From a virus (Duplodnaviria > Heunggongvirae > Uroviricota > Caudoviricetes), in the IMG/VR virus record IMGVR_UViG_2531839661_000011: a stretch of DNA of 15,995 bases; one strand, given 5' to 3'. Below are positions 9,001 to 12,000 of this stretch, piece by piece. Position numbers: made by a program. Each line of letters starts with the position of its first letter. Position 1 is the first letter of the stretch.

Positions 9001-12000
9001 ACACCTTTTGGGGATAAATTTTTATTTATTCCTCTGAGAAAAATTTTATGACAGAGAAACACGCCCAAAAATCACATTCACACGCTATTGATTTAACCGA
9101 ACCGGAATCTGTTGTGAGGTTCGTATCGGTACGAGGCAGAGCCACGCTTTATATACCTGACGAACATCTGCATCACTGCGACAAACATAAACTTCCGATC
9201 CTGATTGTCTGGAAGCGAACGTTATACGCCGATGTGACATGGCTGAATGATTCGCTGATGTTGATACACCGTGACCTGTTTGAACGTGAAGAGTTCCGGC
9301 GGGATATTGAAGAGCGGGCAGAAAAAATCTATGAGAAATATTCAGCAAACAGCAAAAGATCCGCACGGGCAATCGCTCACCATTTCATGACGCTGTATGA
9401 CCTGAAAGCGGAAGATGCAGAAAAAGCGGCATGTGATTTATTCGATATGACCACAGATATCATCCAGGAGTACCGGAACAAGGAGCGCAGACCATGACAG
9501 CACAGATTGCAGCTTACGGGCGGCTGGTGGACGACCCGCAGGAAAAACAGACCAGCAAGGGCACACCGATGACGCTGGCGCGTATGGCGGTATCTTTGCC
9601 ATGCAGTCAGGCACAGGGCGGACAGGCGACGTTATGGCTATCAGTCCTGGCATTTGGTAAGCAGGCCGACGCGCTGGCGAGACATGAAAAAGGCGACCTT
9701 ATCAGCGTGGCGGGTAACATGCAGATCAGTCAGTGGACCGGACAGAACGGAGAAACACGGCAGGGCTGGCAGGTTATCGCTGACAGCGTAATCAGTGCCC
9801 GTTCGGCGCGTCCTGGCGGGAAGCGGGGGCAACAGGGGAAGGCGACCGAAGCACTGGACAGAGCAAAGCGACAGACCGGACAGCAGGGAAATCAGCCACC
9901 AGCGGGAGGTGATGACCCGTTCTCTGACGATATTCCTTTCTGAAGGACAGGAGCACAACATGAACCAGCAGACCACACAACAGGACCAGACCACACGCAG
10001 ACCCACGGAGCGCCCATCATGGCGACACATGACGAAGAGGCAGCGAAAAAACCGCAGACGTATAAACCGACTGGCTGAGTACTGGCCTGAACTGTTTGGG
10101 GCAGAGAATATAAAACCCCTTAAGGCTGGCGTGATACACGATATGTTGAAGGACGCGAAGGCACGGGAATTACCGATTGGTCATGGCGTATTACGTGGCG
10201 CATTAACTTCATACATCCACACGACGCGATACCTGAAAGCCATTGTCGCTGGCGGCGCACGGTATGGACTGAACGGGCAACCTTGCGGTGAAGTCACGGA
10301 AGAAGATAAATCAGTAGCCAGCGAACTACTGAAACGGAGACTGGCGCAAATTAAGCAGCAAAACATCCAGCGGCAGGATACGGGAGGTGGTGAGAGTGAT
10401 AACAGACAGCGTGGCACAGAAACTTGAGGAGCGCGGTTTATGGCGACGTGCGGCGACCCGATGGTCTGACGTCCTTCTTCACGCAGAAACGGACAGGGAG
10501 CGCGAGGAAGCTGCCAGACGTCGGGGGATATGTATCATTAAATCCCGTCGTATGCCTGAGCAGTTCGTCACCTTTGGCGATGTGAAAAAGGCCGCAGACA
10601 GAACGCTGAAAGAGATGGGGATTAATCCGCAGGATGAATGGAAAAATTACAGCTTCAGTGATGCAGGCGACGATTTAGCGCTACCGTGATACGTATCTCA
10701 TCACCGTATTTGCTCAGTTATCGCGATTCGCTATAATCACCACCGAAGAGCCGTTGATGGTGTTCGCCTCTGGCAACTGGAGCCAGACTGCATGAAGCCA
10801 GTCAGCGGCTTTTCAGCACTCATTTTGATGTGTACTTGTCACACACATCGGGATGAGTGAACGACGAAAACATCACGGTGATTTCGTCATGCCGCGATAA
10901 GAATGTTCCCCTTTGGGCAATTGAAGCCCTCTGTGCAGAAGGTTATCGCGGTCAGGTTGTGATAAAAACGCGCCTCTTTGGGCAATTGAAGCCCACTGTA
11001 AAGCGGCTTATCACAACAGGCTGTAGCGGGTGCTTATCTTCTGGCAACTGGAGCCACCTGTACAGAGGCCCGTTACGGCTGACCCTGAATGATTTCGCCC
11101 CGTGCAATTGAAGTGCCCAGCGGAGTTATTCAGGGTTTTTTATTGCCCGTCCACCAGCACCACATCTGTAGCATTGATGCGTATACATTCGCCGTCAATT
11201 GCACCATTCCGGCCCTCACCGTCACGCGCAACAACAGAACGACCTGGCAGGCCATAACGCGCCACCTTTCGACGAACACCATCACCAGCGCCCTCACGAC
11301 GCTCAAACACATTAATCCGCTCAAGAAGACCATCACGCACCATAGCTTCCAGCGTGCGCCTTGTTGATTCGATCTGATACCGGCTGTTGAATGAATCCAT
11401 ACCATGCAGCAGGTAAGCCACACCGGAGACATCAAACGGCGGGTTGCCAATTTCAACGCTGACCCACGCCAGATTGTCGGGAGTGAAGTAACTGAGGAGC
11501 TCTTTTTTGTATTGCGTCAGTCTCATAGTGACCTTTCTTGTTGTAGGATGAATCCCTCATACAATAAGCCATAAGACAAATTTTGAAAGGACAGAATCGG
11601 CGGGGTACAGATGATATGTGATGACAAGGCTGAAGCGCTGGAGAATAGCGGCCTCTGGCGGCGTGCTGCTGAACGCTGGGGAGAATTGTTCAGACAGGCA
11701 AAAACTGATGAAGAGAGGCACTATATTACCCAACGAAGGGCGCAATGCACGGCAAAAGCCACCAGACCAAAAACAACAGAGTGGGGGCATGTATGCGCCG
11801 TCAGGGCAGCAGCGACCAGAACGCTTAAAGATATGGGGATTGACCAGAAAAAAGAAGATCCTTTACGGGGCACGAAGTACAGGGGTGAAACAGGGCGAAG
11901 AGACGGAAGTTAATATGGACACAATAACTGATAAAAAAGCCGAACAACTGGAATCTCAGGGACTATGGCGAAGAGCCGCCGCTCGTTGGCTTGACGTAAT

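Follow-up and report, generated by a model that had tools for sequence, protein, structure and literature searches.

A gene for a divergent SSB, a protein that binds single-stranded DNA, lies at positions 9494-9943 of IMGVR_UViG_2531839661_000011, a 15,995 nt virus sequence (Caudoviricetes) that was analysed at its full length and is called the window below. The gene is carried by an integrase-bearing island of Escherichia coli, downstream of a primase-helicase gene and a putative iteron origin. The reading we favour, to which we assign a probability of roughly 0.7, is that this SSB belongs to the replication module of a satellite of the phage-inducible chromosomal island (PICI) type, where it would coat the single-stranded DNA (ssDNA) of the fork and recruit host replisome factors through its C-terminal tip. 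Co-expression with the replicase, binding to host partners and a contribution to island replication are all predictions. An earlier note, made from the sequence alone, had described the gene as an island-encoded SSB homolog with a DDIPF tail, a second SSB that could support replication of the island or compete for the partners of host SSB.

The SSB gene and its product

The gene is an intact open reading frame (ORF) of 149 codons that runs from ATG to TGA on the + strand (9494-9943), exactly as delimited in the earlier note. It has the C-terminus GGDDPFSDDIPF (the product ends ...QPPAGGDDPFSDDIPF), and its final five residues are shared with E. coli SSB (EcSSB). The Prokaryotic Genome Annotation Pipeline (PGAP) names the product 'single-stranded DNA-binding protein'. 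A Shine-Dalgarno sequence, AAGGAG, can be read 8 nt before the ATG (9480-9485, +), and the start codon shares the tetranucleotide ATGA with the stop of a hypothetical 149-aa ORF (9048-9497, +), so that the two genes are probably translationally coupled. A scan for promoters and terminators around the SSB gene gave the same counts as in shuffled sequences.

Comparison with SSB family profiles, the check that the note had suggested, gave scores above the curated cut-offs. Pfam SSB (PF00436) matches residues 5-99 with 58.1 bits (E = 1e-15; gathering cut-off 26 bits), and TIGR00621 ('ssb') matches with 64.9 bits (curated cut-off 53.95 bits), aligning residues 5-149 to model positions 7-165 of 165, tail included. 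The protein also matches PHROG 44, 'single strand DNA binding protein' (E = 3e-40). A phmmer search of the PDB sequences retrieved SSBs almost exclusively, the best being that of Thermotoga maritima (1z9f, E = 1.4e-10), while EcSSB (1eqq) reached only E = 0.009.

Three parts can be distinguished in the protein, all encoded on the + strand: an oligonucleotide/oligosaccharide-binding (OB) fold domain predicted to bind ssDNA (residues 1-103, 9494-9802), which is delimited by the structural model, Foldseek and aligned aromatic residues; a linker predicted to be disordered (residues 104-139, 9803-9910), recognised by model confidence, composition and alignment; and an acidic tip, DDPFSDDIPF (residues 140-149, 9911-9940), recognised by the identity of its last five residues to EcSSB. 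The linker is 36 aa long with a net charge of +5, and the succession of a predicted disordered linker and an acidic tip ending in [DE]-x-[ILV]-P-F is that of the SSB family.

The note had staked its proposal on an OB fold being predicted, and this was borne out. An AlphaFold2 (AF2) model, built from 37 family members, has strands at residues 2-11, 16-19, 25-36 and 44-54, then a helix (55-62), then two more strands (69-82 and 88-101), and the predicted order b1-b2-b3-helix-b4-b5 over residues 2-101 is the OB-fold topology. Mean confidence in 10-residue blocks (predicted local distance difference test, pLDDT) is 74-87 for residues 1-80, and 51 and 67 for the two blocks of residues 81-100, with values below 50 at the b4-b5 turn (residues 82-84). 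Values below 50 are also found at residues 104-121 and 127-149, consistent with a disordered tail, and a weak helix is predicted within the linker at 117-128. When the model was used to search the PDB with Foldseek, the top 50 matches were all bacterial SSBs (50/50, probability 1.00), with target-normalised TM scores (template modelling) of 0.65-0.83. Sequence profiles and predicted structure thus confirm that the ORF encodes a genuine bacterial-type SSB; it presumably binds ssDNA, which proteins of the bacterial SSB family do with high affinity and irrespective of sequence, as homotetramers or as dimers of two-OB chains.

The island, its replicase and a putative origin

The window is 99.75% identical over its whole length to E. 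coli O43 RM10042 (NZ_CP028122.1), where RefSeq lists the ORF as 'single-stranded DNA-binding protein' (WP_032182858.1). The gene is indeed island-encoded: relative to K-12, the island is a 15.1 kb insertion between yicC and dinD, located in the 3' end of yicC, and has both an integrase gene and an att repeat. At the left edge, K-12 homology ends in the last codons of yicC, about 200 bp to the left of the window, and at the right edge it picks up again at window position 14929. The repeat GAGCAGATTCA(A) is found at both junctions, that is, at the yicC 3' end and at 14929; the right copy, GAGCAGATTCAA (14929-14940, +), is the attR core and the right island boundary according to the K-12 alignment. 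The same 11-12 bp att repeat is present at the yicC end in the RM10042 island (L001). A generic repeat search, and a search of the window for the RM10042 attR string, returned no att repeat; the junctions were located by direct alignment with K-12.

All island genes are on the + strand. The island replicase is a primase-helicase of the D5/P4 type (6929-8752) with Pfam domains D5_N, DUF5906 and Pox_D5, and it matches PHROG 864, 'DNA primase', at E = 1e-185. The P4-family primase C-terminal domain (TIGR01613) is matched at E = 6e-27 with 94.3 bits, below the curated cut-off of 108.7.

Between the replicase gene and the small ORF coupled to the SSB gene is an intergenic spacer of 295 bp (8753-9047) with a GC content of 36%. 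Repeat counts mark this AT-rich spacer as a putative replication origin: the iteron GGTGAACA occurs in 11 exact copies, in both orientations, all within 8766-8995, and nowhere else in the 16 kb window (0.56 copies expected; 0/200 shuffles reached 11). In RM10042 the iteron cluster is shorter by a single 9-bp copy. PICI origins are known to have iterons specific to the element immediately 3' of the replicase gene, and we infer that the spacer functions as such an origin here.

Synteny in related islands

The order replicase, iteron spacer, SSB recurs in islands of E. coli, Salmonella, E. albertii and Leclercia, and it holds with replicases of either the D5 or the DUF927 type and with element-specific iterons. 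Relatives have equally AT-rich spacers at the same position with other repeated octamers: GGTAGACA/GGTAGATA in CP088587, ACGGGTTA in the Salmonella island, CTTGTCCC in that of E. albertii and TGAACCAA in that of Leclercia. The occurrence of element-specific iterons at one and the same site suggests that replicase and origin co-vary.

Six loci were retrieved in a scan of one genome per species with narrow back-translated patterns, which was used for synteny only and not for taxonomic range. In Salmonella, an SSB of 74% identity follows a DUF927-type replicase and precedes a gene for a ProQ protein. A DUF927-type replicase also precedes the SSB gene in E. albertii, in one Leclercia sp. and in Yokenella, with ProQ, PerC or Q genes downstream; in Yokenella the SSB gene follows DUF927 directly, without an iteron spacer. 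In a second Leclercia sp. (L012) the SSB gene again follows a DUF927-type replicase, and ProQ, PerC and Q were not detected downstream. On this synteny, the SSB gene and the slot of replicase and origin travel together in integrase/AlpA satellites, irrespective of the replicase family.

Two E. coli elements extend the comparison to satellites with packaging genes. In CP088587 (L004) the order is int, AlpA, Icd, primase (DUF5906), a small ORF, SSB and PerC, followed by genes for major capsid protein, prohead protease, portal, head closure, connector, HNH, terS and terL; its SSB shares 78% protein identity with that of the window. The other element lies between roxA and phoQ in O157:H7 ATCC 35150, and its SSB gene (WP_000126692.1) shares 80% DNA identity with the island gene. 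Both have the same slot order (replicase, iteron spacer, small overlapping ORF, SSB, PerC), and their SSBs have the same OB-domain residues and a ...DD/GIPF tip. The O157:H7 element has a DUF927-type replicase, unlike the D5/P4-type enzyme of the window, and both differ from the window island in having a complete capsid, portal and terminase module. Where they have packaging genes, the window island has a ProQ/FinO gene, three PerC genes and a Q antiterminator gene. The gene content of the two elements is that of capsid-forming PICIs (cf-PICIs) of the EcCIEDL933 type (10.1101/2022.09.08.507074), and the roxA/phoQ element is taken to be one of these.

CP088587.1 was deposited as a 32.6 kb plasmid, and its island has the chromosomal genes pntB and mdtJI on either side; the entry is probably an excised or misassembled chromosomal segment and not a true plasmid.

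Conservation and distribution

A word-indexed search found 725 relatives of the island SSB. The best 120 of these are 72-97% identical to it and, with few exceptions, come from E. coli, Shigella, E. albertii and Salmonella; every named protein among them is called 'single-stranded DNA-binding protein', and 115/120 end in [IVL]PF. In a HMMER scan of 1.84 billion cluster representatives, 10 clusters scored at E<=1e-30, 348 at E<=1e-10 and 5845 at E<=1e-3. Among 108 apparently full-length distant representatives, 38 end in D-x-[ILVM]PF and 23 others have an acidic tail ending in F.

Forty-two columns are invariant across the 37 members of the family alignment. Pairwise Nei-Gojobori comparisons of the window gene with ten homologues gave dN/dS values of 0.15-0.23 for the OB domain, and of 0.18-0.32 for the C-terminal part in those comparisons where synonymous sites are unsaturated. 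Judged by these sequence comparisons, purifying selection acts on the gene; indels make the linker diverge, but the tip is retained.

A family member was detected by blastn in 1784 of 5426 complete E. coli genomes, with up to 6 per genome; almost all are chromosomal and annotated as SSB. Since the canonical ssb is present in 5425/5426 of the same genomes, the island gene is an additional SSB, a second one as the earlier note had supposed. Some 3 kb downstream, the Salmonella islands encode another SSB paralogue, 114 aa long (L006, 12117-12461), with 50% identity over the OB domain, no acidic tip and Arg at the position equivalent to W88 of EcSSB; it may be degenerate or specialised.

Comparison with host, plasmid and phage SSBs

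EcSSB (b4059) and the island SSB have in common the OB fold, a disordered linker and a C-terminal DDIPF, but a BLASTP comparison with K-12 found only 24% identity over 98 residues. The aromatic residues W40, W54, F60 and W88 of EcSSB stack on ssDNA. In a MAFFT alignment W54, F60 and W88 correspond to W48, F54 and W81 of the island protein; these three of the four stacking aromatics are kept and are invariant in the family. The tips, DDPFSDDIPF in the island protein and PMDFDDDIPF in EcSSB, agree in all of the last five residues and in 7/9 of the last nine. The linkers differ, that of EcSSB being 55 aa with a net charge of +1 compared with 36 aa and +5, and the pI of the whole protein is 8.9 for the island SSB and 5.4 for EcSSB.

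Within the linker, a semi-conserved segment, (K/Q)AT(E/D)AL(D/N/R)RAK (ATxAL-xRAK; 9836-9877, residues ~115-128), is kept in most relatives and cleanly deleted in the SSBs of cf-PICIs, whose linkers are without a 13-residue GQQGxATxALxRA segment. It may be a second interaction motif.

Two subfamily models were not matched at their cut-offs. The island SSB scored 23.5 bits (cut-off 260) with NF006533 (PRK09010), which we take to be the enterobacterial chromosomal type, and 20.4 bits (cut-off 265) with NF010292 (PRK13732), presumably the conjugative-plasmid type. These low scores and the low identity to EcSSB indicate a distinct, divergent clade and not a recent copy of a host or plasmid gene. 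An SSB of the conjugative-plasmid type was considered and set aside, the NF010292 score being far under its cut-off and the gene lying in an integrase/AlpA/primase island, not in a transfer region; matches labelled 'plasmid' proved to be the island between chromosomal pntB and mdtJI (CP088587) or an IS-flanked (insertion sequence) fragment. Conjugative-plasmid SSBs (F-plasmid Ssb/Ssf type) are likewise extra, mobile-element-encoded proteins with a conserved acidic tip, and those of F-type plasmids can complement ssb defects, but they are close paralogues of chromosomal SSB encoded in the plasmid leading region, whereas the island gene adjoins a primase-helicase gene. The SSBs of temperate phages (PHROG 44, e.g. 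staphylococcal) share the PHROG, a similar length, an element-encoded origin and an acidic tip with the island protein; deposited phage SSBs are at most 30% identical to it. Several of these phage SSBs reportedly partner Sak/Sak4 single-strand annealases, of which no counterpart was recognised near the island gene.

Proposed role and alternatives

On the reading that we favour, induction of the island by a helper phage would switch on the rightward operon, and the D5/P4-type primase-helicase would open the iteron origin at 8753-9047. The island SSB, made from the genes just downstream, would coat the exposed single strands via its OB domain, and its ...DDIPF tip, a copy of the host's, would dock host proteins that bind such tips, among them the clamp-loader subunit chi of DNA polymerase III (Pol III), PriA, nucleases and helicases. 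Host replisomes would thereby be assembled on satellite DNA, and an SSB of its own may free the satellite from a host pool titrated by helper-phage replication and SOS-induced ssDNA. The suggestion in the earlier note that the protein could support island replication is backed by its synteny with the primase-helicase gene and the putative iteron origin, which recurs in mosaic relatives, and in a survey of PICIs from Gram-negative bacteria the Replication category comprises the 'Primase, SSB and DUF5906 families' (PMC10111431).

Several observations weigh against this reading. At the position of W40, the fourth stacking aromatic of EcSSB, the whole family has Cys (Cys37 in the island protein), and H55, the residue altered in the ssb-1 tetramer-stability mutant, is replaced by Leu; because of these two replacements, affinity and oligomeric state of the island SSB may differ from those of the host protein. 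Its linker is short, basic and poorer in Gly than that of EcSSB, and the tip is variant or missing in some relatives (L005, L013 and L014). The right tip has been found insufficient for PriA stimulation when the linker differs, so that the tip is necessary and the linker matters too (PMC9087215); this result bears on how far the island SSB can replace that of the host. The island itself may no longer be an active satellite, since it has no recognisable packaging genes. A literature search for experimental studies of an SSB of PICIs or P4-like satellites found none, only the listing of a gene category, and SSB is unmentioned in the cf-PICI preprint (10.1101/2022.09.08.507074), the EcCIMP1 paper and the SatelliteFinder paper (PMC10085698).

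The competition for host SSB partners raised in the earlier note is neither supported nor required by anything in the sequence. In one form of this idea, the island SSB would sequester the partners through its host-like tip, perhaps in mixed tetramers, and so starve the helper phage or dampen host repair and the SOS response. Phage satellites are known to interfere with their helpers, and lambdoid PICI helper phages are not known to encode an SSB of their own. Host and island SSB share their last five residues despite an overall identity of 24%, as if the tip had been specifically retained, and the odd basic linker and the pI of 8.9 (5.4 in EcSSB) suggest altered behaviour. Against it, purifying selection acts on the aromatics that contact ssDNA and on the entire OB domain, the place of the gene is always next to replicase and iterons (directly beside the replicase in Yokenella) and not in an accessory or interference region, and a tip common to bacterial, plasmid and phage SSBs needs no special explanation. 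We consider sequestration unlikely. A bolder form, which we rate as rather improbable, draws on the host-identical tip, the unusually basic linker and the altered oligomerisation residue: the island protein would outcompete or co-assemble with host SSB, diverting its interactome (Pol III chi, PriA, RecQ, ExoI) to the satellite and starving the helper. If true, satellites would have a novel way of interfering with helpers and of capturing replisomes.

Three other roles are less likely. The SSB could be an accessory of recombination or end protection, working with RecA/RecFOR or with a Red/RecT-type protein of the helper to make concatemers for packaging. The annealing partners that phage SSBs of the same PHROG are said to have, and the coupling to an uncharacterised 149-aa protein, would fit such a role, but the coupled ORF (9048-9497) shows no annealase-like family or fold, relatives either lack it or have unrelated small ORFs in its place, and no recombinase was recognised in the island scans; we think this quite improbable. 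It is very improbable that the gene is an inactive relic, a decaying passenger of a defective island. Such a fate could be read from the fact that no capsid, terminase or hijacking gene can be recognised in place of the complete packaging module of close relatives, and from neighbouring genes annotated as frameshifted or partial, but the reading frame is unbroken and preceded by a good Shine-Dalgarno sequence, dN/dS relative to its homologues is 0.15-0.23 with 42 columns invariant across 37 members, and the family is present in 1784/5426 complete E. coli genomes. Some retron-type defences can respond to phage SSBs, and defence genes are frequent cargo of satellites, a general lead that would make the protein a decoy or modulator for host or satellite immunity sensing phage SSBs or ssDNA, but this is scarcely to be expected of a gene that lies outside the variable accessory slot, in conserved synteny with replicase and origin, and neither the SSB nor its immediate neighbours matched a PADLOC defence model.

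Satellite class and other genes of the island

Many features of the island are those of PICIs: an integrase gene at one end, a flanking att repeat, a size within about 10-18 kb, an AlpA gene, a primase/replicase gene with an adjacent putative origin, and genes on a single strand. Packaging or hijacking genes (terS/rpp/ppi; or capsid, portal, protease, HNH, terS and terL) are what it lacks. Pfam and PHROG searches recognised no capsid, terminase or known hijacking gene among the scanned ORFs, and cf-PICI capsid, portal and terL sequences had no tblastn match in the island as present in RM10042. With P4-like satellites it shares only int, the C4/CI-type RNA with Icd and the P4-family primase C-terminal domain; the psu, delta, sid and epsilon genes that accompany alpha primase and integrase in P4-like elements were not found, and the other scanned island ORFs had no match to a capsid-size or Psu family. 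In the SatelliteFinder scheme, where int, AlpA and primase define 'Type C' (PMC10085698), the island is at best a 'Type C' element. On gene content, it is classed here as a PICI-type phage satellite, whose induction, replication and transfer would depend on a helper phage.

The left part of the island begins with a tyrosine integrase gene (1-1263; Pfam Arm-DNA-bind_3, Phage_int_M and Phage_integrase), which is followed by a hypothetical gene. Next are genes for an AlpA/HTH_17 regulator-excisionase (2237-2512; PF05930 with 24.4 bits, cut-off 21; PF12728; PHROG 66), Rha (2580-3299) and a GIY-YIG-like T5orf172/MUG113 protein (3292-4068). For the last of these, PADLOC gave a match to the candidate defence model PDC-S57 (E = 1.4e-8), and the protein may be defence cargo placed between Rha and the immunity region.

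Two C4 antisense RNAs (Rfam RF01695) were detected at 5335-5422 and 5815-5903 on the + strand, with 69 and 73.3 bits, respectively (gathering score 45). Each lies just upstream of the end of an Icd-like ORF (4016-5668 and 5622-6125), and three small ORFs follow; the tandem arrangement looks like a duplicated immunity unit of the P1/P4 type. The first ORF (550 aa; 'Icd-like protein' in RefSeq) contains one of the C4 RNAs. As the Icd-like ORFs annotated in relatives are short (~65 aa), it is probably over-extended, with only the C-terminal ~50-60 aa being Icd-like.

Downstream of the SSB gene, 16 nt after its stop codon, is a gene with a ProQ/FinO domain (9960-10427; Pfam ProQ, E = 1e-24), and the SSB-ProQ pair recurs in the islands of Salmonella, E. 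albertii and Leclercia sp. This would place an RNA chaperone in the replication operon of a satellite. A PerC-family regulator gene follows (10387-10689; Pfam PerC, E = 7e-27), and there are three PerC-family ORFs in the island (10387-10689, 11611-11913 and 11915-12082, +). The third is short and comes directly after the second in another frame, and one PerC gene is marked partial in RefSeq. PerC-like PICI genes reportedly activate or silence LEE, the locus for enterocyte effacement (PMC11773190).

Near the right end, a gene for a lambdoid Q-family antiterminator (13418-13816; Pfam, E = 1e-51) is present in an island without recognisable late or packaging genes, and the ~1.1 kb that follow contain no convincing ORFs. 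In the Yokenella relative, a Q gene likewise comes directly after the SSB gene. A 17-bp palindrome, TTACGAAAATTTCGTAA, occurs at 13323, 14125, 14246 and 14486 (region 13323-14502), with 0 occurrences expected.

Significance

At the level of annotation the island SSB is already known, from RefSeq, PHROG 44 and the listing of PICI gene categories, and mobile elements often bring their own SSB, so the finding mainly confirms a routine annotation. What it adds is that a divergent clade of satellite SSBs is present in a third of complete E. coli genomes, yet no experiment on this clade was found in the literature. It raises the question of why satellites keep a private SSB with a host-type tip, and the answer would tell dependence of satellites on the interactome of host SSB from competition for it.

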